A DNA stretch of 64,000 nt from Escherichia phage FL23. Below, piece after piece: positions 5,146 through 11,739 of the stretch (the stretch's first letter is position 1; each line of letters begins with the position of its first letter). The translations under genes and the position numbers were made by a program. Below the pieces are notes generated by a model. That model ran no database searches, was not told the origin of the DNA, and worked only from the letters and a program-made list of their open reading frames with translations. The DNA lies in the sequence record PP400787; one strand, 5' to 3'.

Positions 5146-5978
5146 AGCCTACTATTTTAACTGATATTGATGGAGTATGTTTAAGCTGGCAATCAGGCCT
5201 TCCTTATTTTGCTCAGAAATATAATCTTCCGTTAGAACATATTTTAAAAATGATCCAAGATGAAAAATTTATTTCTCCAGGTAAACTCTTTAACTGCGAT
5301 GAAGAACTTGGTGTCAAGTTAATTGAAAAATACAATCGTTCAGATTTTATTCGTTACTTGTCTCCATATAAAGATGCTCTGTGTGTAATTAACAAATTAA
5401 AAGAAGATTATAATTTTGTTGCTGTTACAGCATTGGGTGATTCTATTGACGCTCTGCTGAATCGTCAATTTAATTTGAATGCTCTTTTTCCTGGTGCCTT
5501 CTCAGAAGTAATGATGTGTGGTCACGATTCTTCAAAAGAAGAGTTGTTCAAAAAGGCAAAAGAGAAATATAACGTAATTTGTTATATCGACGATCTCGCT
5601 CACCACTGTGATCATGCGAGTGAAATATTAAGTGTTCCTGTTTATTGGATGGCTCGAGGGGAGCGTGACAATATTCCAAAAACTGCTCAGCGAGTTTATA
5701 CATGGAATGATGTAGAGAATAAGCTTTTTTCGCCGAAGGAAAATAAAGAAAGTTTTGATCGTGAAAAAGCTATAAAAGATGCAATCGAGAAGATGATTAA
5801 AAACGATTCTTTTCCTTGGAACACTACCTGGAGAACTCCTGGATTTAATCCTTATAATCTATATCATCCATATCAGACGCATCCGTTTCAGACATGGAAC
5901 TATATTAAACCCGGTGGCATAGAGTATTTGTATAATAGACCTACTTGTGGTGATAATATTTTCCAAGGAGCATTTTAA
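5142..5978 (+). CDS. HAD-superfamily phosphatase-like protein, 5'(3')-deoxyribonucleotidase-like (30.2 position)
   Basis: N-terminal HAD motif I ILTDIDGV (DxDG), candidate motif II AVTALGD and motif IV YIDDLAHH; ATGA coupling with upstream gene. Confidence 0.75.
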   Translation: MKPTILTDIDGVCLSWQSGLPYFAQKYNLPLEHILKMIQDEKFISPGKLFNCDEELGVKLIEKYNRSDFIRYLSPYKDALCVINKLKEDYNFVAVTALGDSIDALLNRQFNLNALFPGAFSEVMMCGHDSSKEELFKKAKEKYNVICYIDDLAHHCDHASEILSVPVYWMARGERDNIPKTAQRVYTWNDVENKLFSPKENKESFDREKAIKDAIEKMIKNDSFPWNTTWRTPGFNPYNLYHPYQTHPFQTWNYIKPGGIEYLYNRPTCGDNIFQGAF

Positions 5979-6247
5979 TGTTTGTTGTTCACACTATTTA
6001 TGAAAATGAAGGTAATACTACACGTGATTACGGTCACGTAAATCAATTTTTTAGATGCAATCCAGAATTCCGAGCTCAAAAAGACGAACGAATTTTTAAA
6101 AAATGCGTAGAGCAAGGTTTCATTTATATCAAGCACTGGATGCAAGGAAATAAAGTTAGAACCACATATCATAAGTCTTTGACTGAGCTTAATGATGAAT
6201 TGATTTATAATAGAGCTGTAAACCAAACTCTGAAGGATGAACAATGA
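5978..6247 (+). CDS. hypothetical protein (30.1 position)
   Basis: AAGGAG SD, TAATG overlap; stop overlaps ligase start. Confidence 0.65.
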   Translation: MFVVHTIYENEGNTTRDYGHVNQFFRCNPEFRAQKDERIFKKCVEQGFIYIKHWMQGNKVRTTYHKSLTELNDELIYNRAVNQTLKDEQ

Positions 6248-7707
6248 TTCTTAAAATTCTGAACGAAATAGCATCTATTGGTTCAACTAAGCAGAAGCAA
6301 GCAATTCTTGAAAAGAATAAAGATAATGAATTGCTTAAACGAGTATATCGTCTGACTTATTCTCGTGGGCTGCAGTATTATATCAAGAAATGGCCTAAAC
6401 CTGGTATTGCTACCCAGAGTTTTGGAATGTTGACTCTTACCGATATGCTTGACTTCATTGAATTCACATTAGCTACTCGGAAATTGACTGGAAATGCAGC
6501 AATTGAGGAATTAACTGGATATATCACCGATGGTAAAAAAGATGATGTTGAAGTTTTGCGTCGAGTGATGATGCGAGACCTTGAATGTGGTGCTTCAGTA
6601 TCTATTGCAAACAAAGTTTGGCCAGGTTTAATTCCTGAACAACCTCAAATGCTTGCAAGTTCTTATGATGAAAAAGGCATTAATAGGAATATCAAATTTC
6701 CAGCTTTTGCCCAGTTAAAAGCTGATGGAGCTCGGTGCTTTGCCGAAGTCAGAGGTGATGAATTAGATGATGTTCGTCTTTTATCACGAGCCGGTAATGA
6801 ATATCTAGGATTAGATCTTCTTAAGGAAGAATTAATCAAAATGACCGCTGAAGCTCGCCAGATTCATCCAGAAGGTGTGTTAATTGATGGCGAATTGGTA
6901 TACCATGAGCAAGTTAAAAAGGAGCCAGAAGGCCTAGATTTTCTTTTTGATGCTCATCCTGAAAACAGTAAAGTTAAAGACTTCACAGAAGTAGCTGAAT
7001 CACGTACTGCTTCTAATGGAATCGCTAATAAATCTTTAAAGGGAACCATTTCCGAAAAAGAAGCACAATGCATGAAGTTTCAGGTCTGGGATTATGTACC
7101 GTTGGTAGAAATATACGGTCTTCCTGCATTTCGTTTGAAATATGATGTACGTTTTTCTAAACTAGAACAAATGACATCTGGATATGATAAAGTAATTTTA
7201 ATTGAAAACCAGGTAGTAAATAACCTAGATGAAGCTAAGGTAATTTATAAAAAGTATATTGACCAAGGTCTTGAAGGTATTATTCTCAAAAATATCGATG
7301 GATTATGGGAAAATGCTCGTTCAAAAAATCTCTATAAATTTAAAGAAGTAATTGATGTTGATTTAAAAATTGTAGGAATTTATCCTCACCGTAAAGACCC
7401 TACTAAAGCAGGTGGATTTATTCTTGAGTCAGAGTGTGGAAAAATTAAAGTAAATGCTGGTTCAGGCTTAAAAGATAAAGCCGGTGTAAAATCACATGAA
7501 CTTGACCGTACTCGCATTATGGAAAACCAAAATTATTATATTGGAAAAATTCTAGAGTGCGAATGCAACGGTTGGTTAAAATCTGATGGCCGCACTGATT
7601 ACGTTAAATTATTTCTTCCGATTGCGATTCGTTTACGTGAAGATAAAACTAAAGCTAATACATTCGAAGATGTATTTGGTGATTTTCATGAGGTAACTGG
7701 TTTATGA
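6244..7707 (+). CDS. 30: ATP-dependent DNA ligase
   Basis: 487 aa; adenylation motif KADGAR (KxDG); N-terminus MILKILNEIASIGSTKQKQ matches T4 DNA ligase from memory. Confidence 0.95.
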   Translation: MILKILNEIASIGSTKQKQAILEKNKDNELLKRVYRLTYSRGLQYYIKKWPKPGIATQSFGMLTLTDMLDFIEFTLATRKLTGNAAIEELTGYITDGKKDDVEVLRRVMMRDLECGASVSIANKVWPGLIPEQPQMLASSYDEKGINRNIKFPAFAQLKADGARCFAEVRGDELDDVRLLSRAGNEYLGLDLLKEELIKMTAEARQIHPEGVLIDGELVYHEQVKKEPEGLDFLFDAHPENSKVKDFTEVAESRTASNGIANKSLKGTISEKEAQCMKFQVWDYVPLVEIYGLPAFRLKYDVRFSKLEQMTSGYDKVILIENQVVNNLDEAKVIYKKYIDQGLEGIILKNIDGLWENARSKNLYKFKEVIDVDLKIVGIYPHRKDPTKAGGFILESECGKIKVNAGSGLKDKAGVKSHELDRTRIMENQNYYIGKILECECNGWLKSDGRTDYVKLFLPIAIRLREDKTKANTFEDVFGDFHEVTGL

Positions 7708-7892
7708 AAGCTTACTTAGAAACAATTGTCGTGGCTCAAAAAGAAGGTGGAGATGTTTCTACTTCTGTATCACAAATCATGATTGAATTTATAGATGCAT
7801 ACGCTTATAATAAATTCACAGAAACATTTGATGCCTATGAAAAAGGTCCAAAGTTTGAAATATATCGTACTCTCTTACCACTAGATTATTAA
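7704..7892 (+). CDS. hypothetical small protein
   Basis: ATGA overlap with ligase stop; followed by UUCG hairpin terminator. Confidence 0.55.
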   Translation: MKAYLETIVVAQKEGGDVSTSVSQIMIEFIDAYAYNKFTETFDAYEKGPKFEIYRTLLPLDY

Positions 7893-7915
7893 AGGCCTTC
7901 GGGCCTTTAATTTTA
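7891..7915 (+). terminator. rho-independent terminator
   Basis: AAAGGCC-TTCG-GGCCTTT followed by AATTTTA. Confidence 0.6.
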
Positions 7916-7921
7916 TAAATA
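7914..7921 (+). promoter_or_regulatory. late promoter (TATAAATA) for alt
   Basis: Exact TATAAATA 24 nt upstream of alt ATG, with GAGAGGA SD in between. Confidence 0.6.
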
Positions 7922-7944
7922 GAATAAACACTAGAGAGGATATG

Positions 7945-10032
7945 ATGGAACTAATTACAGAATTATTTGACGAAGATACTACTCTTCCGATTACAAACTT
8001 AAATCCAAAGAAGAAAATACCACAAATTTTTTCAGTTCATGTTGATGATGCAATTGAACAACCAGGCTTTCGTTTATGTACCTATACATCTGGAGGTGAT
8101 ACTAATCGCGATTTAAAGATGGGCGATAAAATGATGCATATTGTTCCTTTTACATTAACTGCTAAAGGTTCAATTGCCAAATTAAAAGGTCTTGGTCCAA
8201 GCCCAATTAATTATATCAATTCAGTTTTTACTGTTGCAATGCAAACAATGCGTCAGTATAAAATTGATGCCTGCATGCTTCGTATTCTTAAGTCTAAAAC
8301 CGCTGGTCAAGCTCGACAAATTCAAGTTATTGCTGATAGACTTATCCGTAGTCGTTCAGGGGGCAGATACGTCCTTCTTAAGGAACTCTGGGATTATGAT
8401 AAAAAGTACGCATATATTCTTATACATCGCAAAAATGTATCACTGGAAGACATTCCGGGAGTTCCGGAAATTAGTACCGAGCTCTTTACTAAAGTTGAAT
8501 CGAAGGTCGGTGATGTTTATATCAATAAAGATACTGGAGCTCAAGTAACTAAAAATGAGGCAATTGCAGCATCTATTGCGCAAGAAAATGATAAACGTTC
8601 TGATCAAGCTGTAATCGTTAAAGTTAAAATTTCCCGTAGAGCAATTGCACAAAGCCAGTCATTGGAATCTTCTAGATTTGAAAGTGAATTATTCCAGAAG
8701 TATGAATCTACCGCAGCTAATTTCAATAAACCTGCTACCGCTCCTTTAATTCCCGAAGCAGAAGAAATGAAGCTTGGAATTAATTCATTAGCTTCTAAAA
8801 CTAAGGCAGCAAAAATTATTGCCGAAGGAACTGCGAATGAACTTCACTATGACTATAAATTCTTTTCAAAAAGTGAGGTTGATGAAGTTTCTGAAAAAAT
8901 TAAAGATGTAATTCTTAATGCGATTAAAAATGAACCAACTACTTCAATAAAATGTTTAGAGAAATACGCAGCAGCTGTTAATCAACTCTTTGAAGAATAT
9001 AAAGATAATTGGCTTGATAAACATAATAAAACTCGTAAAGGGCAGACAGATGAAGTCTGGGGAGAAATAACTAAAAATGCCTGGAATGCAGCAAAAACTA
9101 AATTCCTCAAACGAATGATTTATAGTTTTTCTGGAATTGGTGCAGGCCCAATGATTGATATTACTATTGCCCGTGATGGTTCTAAATATACTCCATCGCA
9201 AAAGCGCGGTATTAGAGAGTATTGTGGTTCAGGATATACAGACATTAATAATCTTCTTTTAGGTCGTTACAATCCAGAACGATATGATGTAATGAGTGAA
9301 AAAGAAATTGAATCTGCTATAAATAATTTAGATTCAGCTTTTGAAAATGGTGACCGCATACCGGAAGGCATTACAGTTTATCGTGCTCAAAGTATGACTG
9401 CTCCTATATACGAAGCACTAGTTAAAAATAAAGTGTTCTATTTCAGAAATTTTGTATCTACTTCTTTAACTCCTATCATTTTTGGACGTTTTGGAATTAC
9501 ACATGCTGGTATTGGTCTTTTAGAACCAGAAGCTCGTAATGAATTAACAGTTGATAAAAATGAAGAAGGAATAACTATTAATCCAAACGAAATAAGAGCG
9601 TATAAAGAAAATCCTGAATACGTTAAAGTTCAAATAGGATGGGCAATTGATGGAGCTCATAAAGTTAATGTTGTATATCCAGGAAGTCTCGGAATAGCAA
9701 CAGAAGCTGAAGTTATTCTACCGCGCGGACTGATGGTCAAAGTTAATAAAATAACTGATGCTTCTAATAATGACGGAACAACATCTAACAATACAAAACT
9801 CATTCAAGCTGAAGTTATGACCACAGAAGAACTCACCGAATCGGTAATCTATGACGGAGACCATTTAATGGAAACTGGTGAATTGGTTACAATGACAGGT
9901 GATATAGAAGATAGAGTTGACTTTGCATCATTTGTTTCATCAAATGTTAAACAGAAAGTAGAATCATCTCTTGGAATTATTGCGTCTTGCATAGATATTA
10001 CAAACATGCCTTACAAGTTCGTTCAAGGATAA
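7945..10032 (+). CDS. alt: Alt mono-ADP-ribosyltransferase (packaged, modifies host RNA polymerase)
   Basis: About 695 aa; ART catalytic triad elements R (YRAQS), STS (FVSTSLTP) and ExE (EAEVILPRG); late promoter TATAAATA at 7914-7921; GAGAGGA SD; ATG at 7942 is an alternative start. Confidence 0.88.
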   Translation: MELITELFDEDTTLPITNLNPKKKIPQIFSVHVDDAIEQPGFRLCTYTSGGDTNRDLKMGDKMMHIVPFTLTAKGSIAKLKGLGPSPINYINSVFTVAMQTMRQYKIDACMLRILKSKTAGQARQIQVIADRLIRSRSGGRYVLLKELWDYDKKYAYILIHRKNVSLEDIPGVPEISTELFTKVESKVGDVYINKDTGAQVTKNEAIAASIAQENDKRSDQAVIVKVKISRRAIAQSQSLESSRFESELFQKYESTAANFNKPATAPLIPEAEEMKLGINSLASKTKAAKIIAEGTANELHYDYKFFSKSEVDEVSEKIKDVILNAIKNEPTTSIKCLEKYAAAVNQLFEEYKDNWLDKHNKTRKGQTDEVWGEITKNAWNAAKTKFLKRMIYSFSGIGAGPMIDITIARDGSKYTPSQKRGIREYCGSGYTDINNLLLGRYNPERYDVMSEKEIESAINNLDSAFENGDRIPEGITVYRAQSMTAPIYEALVKNKVFYFRNFVSTSLTPIIFGRFGITHAGIGLLEPEARNELTVDKNEEGITINPNEIRAYKENPEYVKVQIGWAIDGAHKVNVVYPGSLGIATEAEVILPRGLMVKVNKITDASNNDGTTSNNTKLIQAEVMTTEELTESVIYDGDHLMETGELVTMTGDIEDRVDFASFVSSNVKQKVESSLGIIASCIDITNMPYKFVQG

Positions 10033-10035
10033 ATC

Positions 10036-10422
10036 ATGGAACTTATTACAGAATTATTTGACGGCGCTTCGGCGCCGGTTGTTAACTTAAATCCTAAGCA
10101 TAAAATACCACAAATTTTTGCTATCCAAGCCGGCGAAGAAAGCGTGCTTCCTGGATTTAGATTTTGTACATATACCTCTGGTGGTGATACAAATAAAAAC
10201 GTTAAGCCAGGCGATAAAATGATGCATATCGTAATGATAGGCGTCAACGAGAAATTATCGCTGGTTAAGCTTAGAAACTTGGGTGGAAATCCAATTGGCG
10301 TCATTAATGCGGTTTTTGATACTGCTCTTCAAACAATGAAGCAGTATAAAATTGACGCATGCCTATTCCGCGTACTAAAAAGTTCAAAATGTAGTTTACA
10401 AGTCCCTCGTGTTGTGTTATAG
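10036..10422 (+). CDS. Alt N-terminal-domain paralog, 128 aa (alt.-x-like)
   Basis: N-terminal ~110 aa closely parallel the Alt N-terminus (MELITELFD...NLNPK.KIPQIF...PGFR.CTYTSGGDTN...GDKMMHIV...YKIDAC); no ART motifs; AAGGA SD. Confidence 0.65.
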   Translation: MELITELFDGASAPVVNLNPKHKIPQIFAIQAGEESVLPGFRFCTYTSGGDTNKNVKPGDKMMHIVMIGVNEKLSLVKLRNLGGNPIGVINAVFDTALQTMKQYKIDACLFRVLKSSKCSLQVPRVVL

Positions 10423-10454
10423 TAGTCTTACTGACATAACATGAGGAACACAAA

Positions 10455-10745
10455 ATGAAATCTTCTTTGCGCTTTTTAGGTCAAGAACTTGTAGTTGAAG
10501 GCGTTATTCCTGCTGATAATGCTTTTAACGAAGCAGTTTATGATGAATTTATCAAAATTTTCGGAACAGATAAAAAGTTTGGAATTTTTCCTTCTAAAAA
10601 TTTTTCAAAGCCAGAACAGACTGAAAGTATTTTTCAGGGTGTAGTAACAGGTAAATTTGAGTCAGAAGCTCCTGTAAAAATTGAAGTTTATATTGAAGAC
10701 GGTTTAGTTGCTTCAGTTGCTGCTTTCATTTCATTCCGTAAATAA
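10455..10745 (+). CDS. hypothetical protein
   Basis: GAGGA SD + ATG; followed by a bidirectional hairpin terminator. Confidence 0.6.
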   Translation: MKSSLRFLGQELVVEGVIPADNAFNEAVYDEFIKIFGTDKKFGIFPSKNFSKPEQTESIFQGVVTGKFESEAPVKIEVYIEDGLVASVAAFISFRK

Positions 10746-10747
10746 AA

Positions 10748-10775
10748 ATATGGGGACCGAAAGGTCCCCATTGTT
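10748..10775. terminator. bidirectional hairpin terminator between convergent genes
   Basis: TGGGGACC-GAAA-GGTCCCCA with U-runs on both strands. Confidence 0.65.
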
Positions 10776-11739
10776 ATATTGCTCCTAATATTTTACTTTG
10801 CGAATTGACAATTCCTGTCATGGTATTAATGTTTGAAATGCTTCCAGCAGTTCCCCCTAATCTACTGAGTCGTGAAAGCGAATTAGATAGTCCAGTAACG
10901 CCTCCGCTATTTCCGAGAACGCTTTGAATACCATTTATAGCAGCAGATTCAAGCCATTCAAGCGCAGCTTGCCTATCAACTGCTCCAGCCTGCATCACTC
11001 TATACGCAAAAGTAACGTCAAATGTAGTTATTTGGTTATCTCCATCATATGATAACTCAGGAGCGCTCACTGATATTGGAATGCATCCGGTGAACATCAC
11101 CGCAGTATGAGGCAATCCATTACGAGAATGAAGATTAACTTGGATATCCGCCTCAACATCTTGCGGCAGAGCACGCAATCCAGTTACTGGGTCTTGAACA
11201 GCATTAACCCAGTCTTGCATTGCACGATAGTTACAAGCTTCTGAATCCATTCTAAATGAAATAACCAAAGGGTCTAATTCTCTCCCAGTTATACGAATAT
11301 TAGGGGAATTATAGTTCCAGTCAGTTTCATAAGATAATCTATTCTCTGGCATTTTTACAGAATATATCATCAATCCAGATGAGTTATATGCCATGTTAAA
11401 GAAGTCAATTAAATATGTACCAACTGTAAATGAGCCTAATAAACTCTGGACAGTACGTTGACTCATGGCACCAATAAGATATTTACTGACTCCTGATTTT
11501 CTTATTAGTTTTTGTGTGCCAGCTGTAATTAGCGTGGTAATTCCCTGATTAATATCACCTTGAGTTAATCCTAACCAATTTGAATTTAGGCCCAAGTTAT
11601 TATAAGAAAAGTTGCTAATTGAACTTATCAACGAAGAGCTTTTAGTTGATGGAGTTGTCGCAAAAACGCAGCTAAACATATTATTACGTTGGAAATCTGC
11701 GTTTATTGCTTGATTATTAAATTCCTCTAAAGAATACAT
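10774..11739 (-). CDS. 54: baseplate tail tube initiator/cap
   Basis: 321 aa; synteny 54-48-29-28-27-51; length matches T4 gp54. Confidence 0.9.
   Translation of the reverse strand: MYSLEEFNNQAINADFQRNNMFSCVFATTPSTKSSSLISSISNFSYNNLGLNSNWLGLTQGDINQGITTLITAGTQKLIRKSGVSKYLIGAMSQRTVQSLLGSFTVGTYLIDFFNMAYNSSGLMIYSVKMPENRLSYETDWNYNSPNIRITGRELDPLVISFRMDSEACNYRAMQDWVNAVQDPVTGLRALPQDVEADIQVNLHSRNGLPHTAVMFTGCIPISVSAPELSYDGDNQITTFDVTFAYRVMQAGAVDRQAALEWLESAAINGIQSVLGNSGGVTGLSNSLSRLSRLGGTAGSISNINTMTGIVNSQSKILGAI

Follow-up and report, generated by a model that had tools for sequence, protein, structure and literature searches.

The Alt protein of phage T4 is a mono-ADP-ribosyltransferase that is packaged and injected. 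It is reported to be cut at ITE-6 near the N-terminus and processed at LTE-619 near the C-terminus, and the ITE-6 propeptide is treated as a capsid targeting sequence (PMC5694885). For the internal proteins of T4, a short N-terminal propeptide is held to be enough to direct the protein to the capsid, and the propeptide of Alt is counted among these (PMC5694885). The T4 alt gene belongs to the late class for both RNA and protein (PMC9697503). Between alt and alt.-3, T4 carries two small reading frames, alt.-1 (61 aa, NP_049810) and alt.-2 (67 aa, NP_049809), which have been annotated as alt-derived for more than 20 years. Phages RB32, T2 and T6 have in this place a second full-length gene for an 'Alt-like RNA polymerase ADP-ribosyltransferase' of 685 aa, named alt.-2 in RB32. 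The paralogy of alt was described by Nolan 2006, the only source found in a literature search for further discussion of alt paralogs.

The window analysed here is a stretch of 64,000 nucleotides from Escherichia phage FL23 (sequence record PP400787). The features of its alt region are collected in Table 1. Directly behind alt it contains an open reading frame of 128 codons, located at the same site as alt.-1 and alt.-2 of T4. We consider this ORF to be the remnant left by a deletion in a full-length tandem Alt paralog, a pseudogene that is still open and has no selected function, with a probability of about 0.82. The remnant is real but ordinary, and remnants of this kind are already annotated.

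Table 1. Features of the alt region, in positions of the window
Feature	Position	Strand	Remarks
Terminator-like hairpin, after alt.1 and upstream of the alt late promoter	7891-7908	+	-13.5 kcal/mol, z -3.26
Late-promoter motif TATAAATA for alt	7914-7921	+	exact match to the T4 late motif
alt ORF	7942/7945-10032	+	695 aa, RB32/T2 allele type; two possible ATGs
Conserved N-terminal module of Alt, about residues 1-237	7945-8655	+	predicted single compact GNAT-like fold
ITE, Alt residues 4-6, gp21 prohead-protease motif closing the N-terminal propeptide	7954-7962	+	motif present
ART catalytic domain, Alt residues 378-627	9076-9825	+	Pfam PF03496, Alt/VIP2 type, E 1.7e-37
LTE, Alt residues 630-632, C-terminal gp21 cleavage motif	9832-9840	+	motif present
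Shine-Dalgarno AAGGA of the 128-codon ORF	10025-10029	+	within the final alt codons; 6 nt before the ATG
Probable remnant of second Alt paralog, 128 aa	10036-10422	+	orthologous to RB32 alt.-2 and to T4 alt.-1 plus alt.-2
Codon 6 (GAA)	10051-10053	+	intact in the window; TAA (E6*) in many sister alleles
A5 run	10195-10199	+	intact in the window; A4 (-1 frameshift) in T4-type alleles
Deletion junction, single copy of the 9-bp repeat CTAAAAAGT	10375-10383	+	full-length alt.-2 has two copies, spaced by 1,699 bp
Out-of-frame tail, residues 117-128 (SKCSLQVPRVVL) and stop	10384-10422	+	crosses the last 11 nt of the old gene, then intergenic DNA
Early-type promoter of alt.-3 (TTTACA, 17 nt, TATAGT)	10395-10423	+	consensus scan 10/12, extended TG; overlaps the tail of the remnant
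alt.-3, DUF5498, 96 aa, outside the paralog	10455-10745	+	PF17602, E 3e-63
Bidirectional terminator between alt.-3 and gene 54	10750-10771	.	annotated in e11/2, fPS-90 and OE5505

The start of alt at the second ATG is the one annotated in relatives. It gives a protein that opens with MELITE and agrees with the way in which the N-terminal cleavage site is numbered in the literature (ITE-6). The product matches PHROG 802 (E 5e-273) and has 98% identity to cluster P0004; its identity to T4 Alt is 71%. The catalytic residues R480, S505-T506-S507 and E587-x-E589 all lie within the PF03496 domain, and the R, S, E and E of the ART signature are invariant in comparison with 45 distant homologs. The E of the LTE motif is nearly invariant across the Alt family. 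Cleavage by gp21 is known for T4 only. With the PF03496 domain, the R/STS/ExE residues, an N-terminal module of about 240 aa and both cleavage motifs present, positions 7945-10032 are assigned, from sequence, to a putative packaged ADP-ribosyltransferase of the Alt type. The annotations of phages fPS-90 and fPS-2 place a terminator at the site of the hairpin ahead of its late promoter. The original prediction, made from the DNA letters, had placed a late promoter before Alt and the R / S-T-S / E-x-E elements in its C-terminal half, and both were located here; its view that the N-terminal region probably mediates head incorporation agrees with the literature on the ITE-6 propeptide.

It is important to define the extent of the N-terminal module. 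In Alt and its paralogs, conservation is unbroken over about 240 N-terminal residues, with no gap at position 117, and the module of the window Alt is at least 99% identical to those of T4 and T2 Alt over 237 aa. A model of Alt residues 1-250, for which Aeromonas-phage homologs were added to the alignment, gave a single compact fold with a pTM of 0.77. The model of full-length Alt was built from a low-diversity alignment of 17 rows and had a mean pLDDT of 38, so that nothing was drawn from it. The fold of the module appears GNAT-like in the model. This likeness comes from the comparison of folds, since a profile of 17 N-modules found no match among PDB sequences at E up to 10, and a Pfam search for a GNAT-type match returned only noise. 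Among 65 representatives, the domain is nearly always N-terminal in proteins of roughly 600-700 aa. A stand-alone family of the N-domain was considered and rejected; most of the short matches were proteins with frameshifted or junk tails or came from contigs of roughly 1 kb.

The 128-codon ORF repeats the beginning of this module. In a BLASTP alignment, its residues 1-116 matched Alt residues 1-117 with 71 of 117 positions identical (61%, E 2e-48), which confirms at the level of sequence a similarity far above chance. The same 116 residues are identical to RB32 Alt.-2. The ORF also matches the families of T4 Alt.-1 and Alt.-2, phrog_23015 over residues 1-56 (E 1.7e-41) and phrog_15247 over residues 62-128 (E 2e-48). 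It begins only 3 nt after the alt stop codon, and the layout of its Shine-Dalgarno sequence is identical to that found ahead of full-length alt.-2 in RB32, T2 and T6. MELITE is retained at residues 1-6 and, judged as a motif, fits the (L/I)-x-E propeptide pattern that gp21 cuts in the capsid-targeted internal proteins of T4 (IPI-III, Alt). The homology to PHROG 802 stops at residue 117, which is profile position 120 of 674, and the last 12 residues have no counterpart in any Alt. A Pfam scan of the short ORF gave no match, hence no ART domain, and the N-module is incomplete, with 116 of about 240 conserved positions covered and the cut located between strand 109-115 and helix 123-138 of the Alt 1-250 model. 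Lacking the ART domain and holding only half of the N-module, the product cannot be an ADP-ribosyltransferase. The label 'RNA polymerase-ADP-ribosyltransferase', which some GenBank records attach to the stub, is misleading for the same lack of an ART domain. The repeat of the first 110 or so residues of Alt and the separate Shine-Dalgarno sequence had both been foreseen, and pairwise alignment extends the repeat well beyond a few residues. The description of the ORF as the N-terminal domain only went too far, as the ORF covers about half of the conserved N-terminal module.

The origin of the short ORF is explained by comparison with other Tequatrovirus genomes. A word-indexed search with the 128-aa ORF returned 3 matches of 11 candidates and missed the full-length relatives, and tblastn and a search of representatives were used instead. 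In the phage collection, the same site is occupied by a full-length second Alt paralog of 683-685 aa in 402 records (T2, T6, RB32 and others), while the deletion junction is present in one piece in 90 records including that of T4; the long form is thus about four times commoner than the short. An intact ORF of 683-685 aa between alt and alt.-3 was found in RB32, T2, T6, PP01, CrRp10, W143 and OE5505. In alignment, the window tracks the 5' end of RB32 alt.-2 as far as CTAAAAAGT and resumes at the 3' end from the second copy of CTAAAAAGT; the paired repeat positions were checked in RB32, T6, T2 and CrRp10. The part absent from the window comprises codons 117-683 of RB32 alt.-2, which encode the remainder of the N-module, a variable middle part and the ART domain. 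The final 11 nt of the old gene, stop included, are still there past the junction, and the old stop TAG (10392-10394) is read through out of frame by the short ORF. Since 1,699 bp do not make a whole number of codons, the deletion is out of frame; translation therefore passes the old stop and goes on through 12 unrelated codons, entering the alt.-3 promoter. The annotation of phage Lutter also has a promoter here. The T4 alt.-3 gene is of the early class for RNA and protein, and alt.-3 is found in both the short and the full-length arrangements.

These comparisons suggest the following course of events. An ancestor would have carried two full-length tandem alt genes, alt itself and the paralog of 685 aa. 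Loss of the 1,699 bp between the CTAAAAAGT direct repeats would have removed codons 117-683 of the paralog, and with them the second half of the conserved N-module and the whole ART domain. The shift of frame at the junction would then have added the 12 foreign codons that run past the old stop into the early promoter. The junction is identical in T4 and in the 20 other distinct short alleles that were read. An independent deletion in the window allele was considered, since its 5' haplotype is RB32-like and the stubs of the T4 type are PP01/W143-like. The alleles are, however, visibly mosaic and have evidently recombined, and the present sample fits a single origin of the deletion as well as a recurrent one.

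The short copies show clear signs of decay. A small sample picked from BLAST listings was read, with 21 distinct short alleles and 7 full-length ones. Only four short alleles are open, namely the window allele (listed as FL44), AV121, N2 and SYGD1. Nine others carry E6*, four carry the -1 frameshift and four carry both; a 9-bp deletion is also present in one of the disabled alleles. The full-length alleles are all intact (7/7). Variants private to short alleles comprise 10 nonsynonymous or nonsense and 9 synonymous changes, against 2 nonsynonymous and 30 synonymous among variants seen in full-length alleles (Fisher p = 3e-4). Constraint on the short copies is relaxed. Neutral change is expected to give nonsynonymous and synonymous variants at roughly 3:1 as a rule of thumb. 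The private-variant ratio of 10:9 is below this value, which may be due to unsampled full-length alleles and recombination, and could also reflect residual constraint. As the remnant is disabled in most of its carriers, T4 included, it is not kept by selection, and the best reading of the window copy is that it has merely not yet been broken. The stub derives from a longer gene that is intact in relatives, it has lost essential domains, and its sister copies show lesions together with relaxed constraint, as is characteristic of a pseudogene.

The stub keeps the ribosome binding site of the paralog, starts 3 nt past the alt stop, and no terminator was found between alt and the 128-codon ORF; it is therefore most likely co-transcribed with alt, with its translation coupled. 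Transcription from the late promoter of alt with coupled translation would yield a short protein that opens with the propeptide MELITE. With the ITE motif retained, packaging is conceivable, if unlikely, for the few intact alleles. In T4, RNA of alt.-1 and alt.-2 has been detected and assigned to the 'middle' class, while the time-course proteome gives no protein class for Alt.-1 and Alt.-2; this proteome concerns the split form and not the intact ORF, and small proteins are easily missed in it.

The stub might accordingly be regarded as a functional small late protein, targeted to the prohead by MELITE, cut by gp21 after ITE-6, and serving as an injected cargo or as a competitor or decoy that tunes the packaging of Alt. 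We regard this as unlikely. The window ORF is open, with a good Shine-Dalgarno sequence and a position suited to coupling with alt, but 17 of the 21 alleles with the same junction are disabled and constraint on them is relaxed. It has ITE at residues 4-6, as in Alt, and propeptides of this kind, that of Alt included, suffice for capsid targeting in the T4 literature; however, the stop at codon 6 in sister alleles removes exactly the product that bears the propeptide. A folded or partly folded product is possible in that residues 1-116 are identical to those of a functional full-length paralog, yet the fragment breaks off within what is predicted to be one fold, and its tail is frameshifted promoter sequence. 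A few proteins consisting of the N-module only do occur elsewhere, for example one of 272 aa in Aeromonas phage 50AhydR13PP, but they hold the whole module of about 240 aa and not half of it. The split products, moreover, were undetected in T4 proteomics. The packaged cargo or decoy and the regulator offered by the original prediction are disfavoured by the same disabled alleles, the relaxed constraint and the undetected T4 Alt.-1 and Alt.-2. A narrower form of the idea, confined to the open stubs of FL44, AV121, N2 and SYGD1, is quite improbable. In these phages, translation coupled to alt, prohead targeting by MELITE and trimming by gp21 would let the stub occupy core sites where a second Alt enzyme would otherwise sit. 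If this were true, it would be a natural construct of 'capsid targeting sequence plus inert cargo', and the dose of injected ADP-ribosyltransferase would be altered.

It is very unlikely that just the 5' part of alt was duplicated to give the short ORF, and that the long form of RB32 and T2 was produced later by insertion. This order of events is implied by the GenBank notes, which speak of an 'old duplication of the first part of gene alt' in T4 and of an 'apparent insertion in alt.-2' in RB32, and the short form is the one carried by T4, the reference phage. However, the long form has 41% identity to Alt, bears PF03496, and is colinear with Alt from end to end, including the ART residues, the C-terminal cleavage region and the tail (LEESVYDGDHLMETGE ... 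KF), and this colinearity makes it a whole-gene duplicate. The last 11 nt of the long gene, stop included, persist in the short form out of frame. The junction holds one copy of the 9-bp repeat, and in the long form a copy stands on either side of the 1,699 bp that are missing, a pattern that marks a deletion. The long form is also the commoner one, and full-length tandem alt duplicates are found in distant Aeromonas phages as well. The two GenBank wordings are thus better replaced by the description of a full-length tandem paralog that lost 1,699 bp, out of frame, between two 9-bp repeats. Of the 'duplication remnant' proposed earlier, the remnant stands; comparison with T4 and RB32 makes it a deletion derivative of a full-length paralog rather than a duplicate of the 5' part only. 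That the short form is an artefact of assembly or sequencing has a negligible probability, for although assemblers can collapse similar tandem paralogs, and several stretches of 18-27 nt are identical between the two N-terminal regions, the junction joins two parts of the same paralog, not alt with the paralog, and occurs exactly in 90 independent records, several T4 sequences from different laboratories among them.

The deletion remnant may now be compared with the known systems. The Alt of the window shares with T4 Alt the late promoter, the ITE-6 and LTE motifs, the N-module and the R-S-E ART domain; the stub has in common with the window Alt the first 116 residues (61%), and is without the ART domain. 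The orthologous full-length paralogs of RB32, T2 and T6 have the same Shine-Dalgarno sequence, start and flanks as the window ORF, which differs from them by the absence of 1,699 bp and by the frameshifted tail of 12 residues. The window ORF agrees with T4 alt.-1 and alt.-2 in its position in the same alt to alt.-3 locus, in both family matches and in the 9-bp junction; the lengths are equal within 1 nt and the identity is 96% through the frameshift. The two differ in that T4 lacks one A of the A5 run, which splits the frame into two ORFs, while the window retains a single frame of 128 codons. In addition, the window stub adjoins an alt of the RB32 type, only 71% identical to T4 Alt. Another counterpart, g192c of Yersinia phage fPS-2, is the same remnant with the same junction, 99% identical to that of the window and annotated as Alt N-terminal-like and a 'putative pseudogene'. 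Its codon 6 is TAA where the window has GAA, and on this account the annotators called an ORF of 92 aa from an internal start.

The broad biological weight of the remnant is small, as it is another eroding accessory gene in a hyperplastic region of phage genomes. It is important to note, though, that most T-even relatives possess two full-length enzymes of the Alt type, while T4, the model for work on Alt, has one. This difference is relevant when results from T4 are extrapolated to other phages. A further parallel is provided by RB49, a phage of another genus, Krischvirus. Its ORF183c (274 aa, 'similar to C-terminal part of T4 Alt') is likewise a partial alt paralog, and it lies directly behind alt and ahead of gene 54. 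ORF183c keeps the ART end of the enzyme, whereas the window stub keeps the N-terminus. The slot between alt and gene 54 is a recurrent site of the gain and erosion of alt paralogs.

The segment comprising window bases 7700-10800 is identical (100%) to Escherichia phage FL44 in BLAST and 97-98% identical to RB32, RB33, T2 and many further Tequatroviruses. Residues 378-627 of Alt match PF03496, the ADP-ribosyltransferase (ART) exoenzyme family (Pfam, E 1.7e-37), with catalytic residues R480, STS 505-507 and E587-x-E589. The start of alt in the relatives' annotation is the second of two adjacent ATG codons, giving MELITE, and agrees with the N-terminal cleavage site as numbered in the literature, ITE-6 (PMC5694885). 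The original prediction, of an Alt protein with R / S-T-S / E-x-E elements behind a late promoter (TATAAATA) and a short ORF repeating its start with its own Shine-Dalgarno sequence, is confirmed. The 128-codon ORF, called here the stub, aligns with residues 1-117 of Alt at 61% identity (BLASTP, E 2e-48). Its AAGGA lies within the final alt codons, and 3 nt separate the stop codon of alt from the stub ATG.

Features of the alt locus in the window
Feature	Position	Strand	Remark
DNA ligase gp30	6244-7707	+	
alt.1	7704-7892	+	62 aa
Late-promoter motif TATAAATA	7914-7921		directly 3' of terminator hairpin
alt	7945-10032	+	
Alt N-module, as modelled	7945-8694		
Second exact TATAAATA	9318-9325	+	within alt
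C-terminal gp21 cleavage region of Alt	9832-9873		L-x-E-S...YDGD...ETGE
128-codon ORF (stub)	10036-10422	+	
A5 run	10195-10199		
Stop TAG of the old gene	10392-10394		now out of frame
Early-type promoter TTTACA-17-TATAGT	10395-10423		coincides with stub tail
Strong hairpin	10395-10447		CCCTCGTGTTGTGTTAT paired with ATAACATGAGG
alt.-3	10455-10745	+	
gene 54	beyond alt.-3, convergent	-	

Several other features of the locus may be mentioned. The ATG of alt.1 overlaps the ligase stop codon (ATGA), and its product hits PF24647, a recent Pfam family named "Phage blade protein" (E 7e-29). The second TATAAATA, if a late promoter, would give a transcript over the last third of alt and on through the stub and alt.-3; across the window the motif occurs 22 times against 9.3 expected, an enrichment as expected for a T4-type genome. 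Alt itself is a mosaic. Its first 237 residues are at least 99% identical in 489 Tequatrovirus records, T4 among them, yet the RB32/T2-type allele (695-697 aa, the type of the window) and the T4-type allele (682 aa) are only 71% identical over their full length. Stubs are found beside both allele types, so alt and its neighbour recombine independently. The C-terminal gp21 cleavage region is kept, with a nearly invariant Glu, in distant homologs 24-40% identical to the first sequence of the alignment, so C-terminal processing is probably shared by the whole family rather than peculiar to T4.

Most relatives cover the 3.1-kb query in two pieces across about 4.8 kb. RB32 carries a gene of 685 aa between alt and alt.-3, annotated alt.-2 ("similar to alt"), and this gene is also present in T2, T6, PP01, CrRp10, W143 and OE5505. 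RB32 Alt.-2 and Alt are colinear over their whole lengths, with 41% identity; Alt.-2 carries its own PF03496 domain and catalytic motifs, and its C-terminal region matches that of Alt around the LTE cleavage site. The window tracks the 5' end of this gene as far as CTAAAAAGT and resumes at a second CTAAAAAGT near the 3' end. The two 9-mers are 1,699 bp apart in RB32, T6, T2 and CrRp10; the window has one copy (the junction) and has therefore undergone a deletion between short direct repeats. Such a pattern is the classical mark of slippage or microhomology-mediated deletion and is well documented in T4 rII. The length 1,699 is not divisible by three, which shifts the frame: past residue 116 the stub has 12 unrelated codons, SKCSLQVPRVVL, that cross the final 11 nt of the old gene, stop codon included, before entering intergenic DNA. 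Six differences from RB32, all synonymous, mark the window stub as an undamaged copy rather than a divergent one. Judged from these alignments, the long form is ancestral.

A junction-spanning probe of 171 nt was found in one piece in 90 phage records, and a 1.5-kb probe for the deleted segment in 402 records, in one place each at 94-100% identity. These sets nearly partition the 499 records matched overall by the junction probe, and T4 falls in the minority with the deletion. The stub sequence was read in 21 distinct truncated phages (window and FL44 counted as one) and in 7 full-length alleles. The 128-codon frame is intact in FL44, AV121, N2 and SYGD1. Codon 6 is changed from GAA to TAA (E6*) as the only lesion in fPS-90, fPS-2, EC128, SG1, 215Ecol030PP, FL12, PTE-Eco15, AV119 and AV120. 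One A is missing from the A5 run, giving the alt.-1/alt.-2 pair of T4, in T4, e11/2, Pu-Krd-SF2 and RPN226; both lesions occur in Lutter, T-01, F1 and pSe_SNUABM_01, with a further 9-bp deletion in F1. All seven full-length alleles are open over 683-685 codons. Of the 90 records with the junction, only 16 gave a one-piece alignment in a tblastn survey, and 12 of these have the E6* stop, leaving the ORF intact in about 4 of 90. Of the variants in codons 1-116 that are private to truncated alleles, 10 are nonsynonymous or nonsense and 9 synonymous, against 2 nonsynonymous and 30 synonymous among those found in full-length alleles, private or shared (Fisher p = 3e-4), in a small sample picked from BLAST listings, visibly mosaic by recombination, where some "private" synonymous variants may occur in further long alleles. 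The polymorphism tells the same story as the lesions, of a stub that appears not to be maintained.

The stub had been described as a copy of the N-terminal domain only, and this description does not hold. Conservation between Alt and Alt.-2 is continuous over the N-terminal ~240 residues (the N-module), as it is in 45 distant homologs (24-40% identical to the first aligned sequence), and beyond it come a variable middle and then the ART domain, again conserved. The full-length Alt model was unusable (pLDDT 38), but Alt 1-250, modelled with a more diverse alignment, gave one compact fold (pLDDT 77.8, pTM 0.77; TM 0.95 to an independent BFVD model of an identical N-terminus). The deletion cuts between the predicted strand 109-115 and helix 123-138, removing helices and strands of one fold, so that the stub would correspond to no domain. 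In a representative library of 1.8 billion proteins, nearly every occurrence of the domain is at the N-terminus of a protein about 600-700 aa long, and most short matches carry frameshift-like tails. The 128-aa ORF matched no family in a Pfam set without PF26846; precomputed annotation places PF26846 on all Alt homologs and on a 92-aa version of the stub, so the N-module already has a Pfam entry.

In BFVD, weak fold matches to the N-module model (Foldseek E 1e-4 to 1e-6, TMq 0.35-0.5) come from large, uncharacterised proteins in unrelated phages. Labels on some of them are zeta-toxin, cytidine deaminase or ParB/sulfiredoxin domain protein, which may mean that injected effectors reuse the module as an N-terminal carrier. 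The BFVD matches also include Alt genes that are split or reduced to the N-module, for example in Acinetobacter phage Henu6 and as a 272-aa protein of Aeromonas phage 50AhydR13PP.

There is no terminator between alt and the stub in the window, and the stub starts from the Shine-Dalgarno sequence and ATG of the functional paralog; it is thus likely to be co-transcribed late with alt and translated by coupling. In T4, RNA for alt.-1 and alt.-2 was detected and classed as "middle", while neither protein was assigned a class in the proteome (PMC9697503 supplement). The six-residue Alt propeptide, cleaved by gp21 at ITE-6, is grouped by reviews with the capsid targeting sequences of internal proteins (PMC5694885). 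The predicted stub product starts with the same MELITE and could in principle be packaged from an intact allele. However, the commonest lesion, E6*, removes exactly the product bearing MELITE, which argues against its being needed. That the stub is inert packaged cargo in the few intact alleles is very improbable.

The alt.-3 gene is early in T4 (PMC9697503), and its early-type promoter is annotated in phage Lutter. The first arm of the hairpin listed in the table (81-nt fold, -23.3 kcal/mol, z -3.65) spans the 3' end of the stub ORF together with the -10 element of this promoter; the second contains the alt.-3 Shine-Dalgarno sequence. The ribosome site of alt.-3 would be sequestered in read-through transcripts from alt, and transcripts from the internal early promoter, without the 5' arm, would be translatable. 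Such logic is known for T4 genes e, soc and I-TevI.

The question is resolved in favour of a remnant. Of the options in the original prediction, that of a duplication remnant stands, refined as follows: an ancestor would have carried a full-length tandem alt paralog, in which an out-of-frame microhomology deletion produced the stub, now decaying. The 3' end of the long gene, retained in the short form, argues against both a partial 5' duplication ("duplication of the first part of gene alt", T4 record) and an "apparent insertion in alt.-2" (RB32 record). In substance the finding was already known from the T4 record, from Nolan et al. 2006, who counted T4 alt.-1 and alt.-2 as alt paralogs and noted a full-length alt duplicate in Aeromonas phage 44RR, and from the fPS-2 annotation, "similar to N-terminal of Alt; putative pseudogene". 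By position, junction and PHROG matches the stub is T4 alt.-1/alt.-2 in the form of an unsplit allele. Lacking an ART domain, it does not belong to the ADP-ribosyltransferase family, despite being so labelled in several GenBank records. Its mirror image lies directly downstream of alt in phage RB49: ORF183c (274 aa; RB49 locus 5540-6364), whose annotation notes similarity to the C-terminal (ART) part of Alt. Paralogs of alt seem to have been gained and eroded repeatedly between alt and gene 54.
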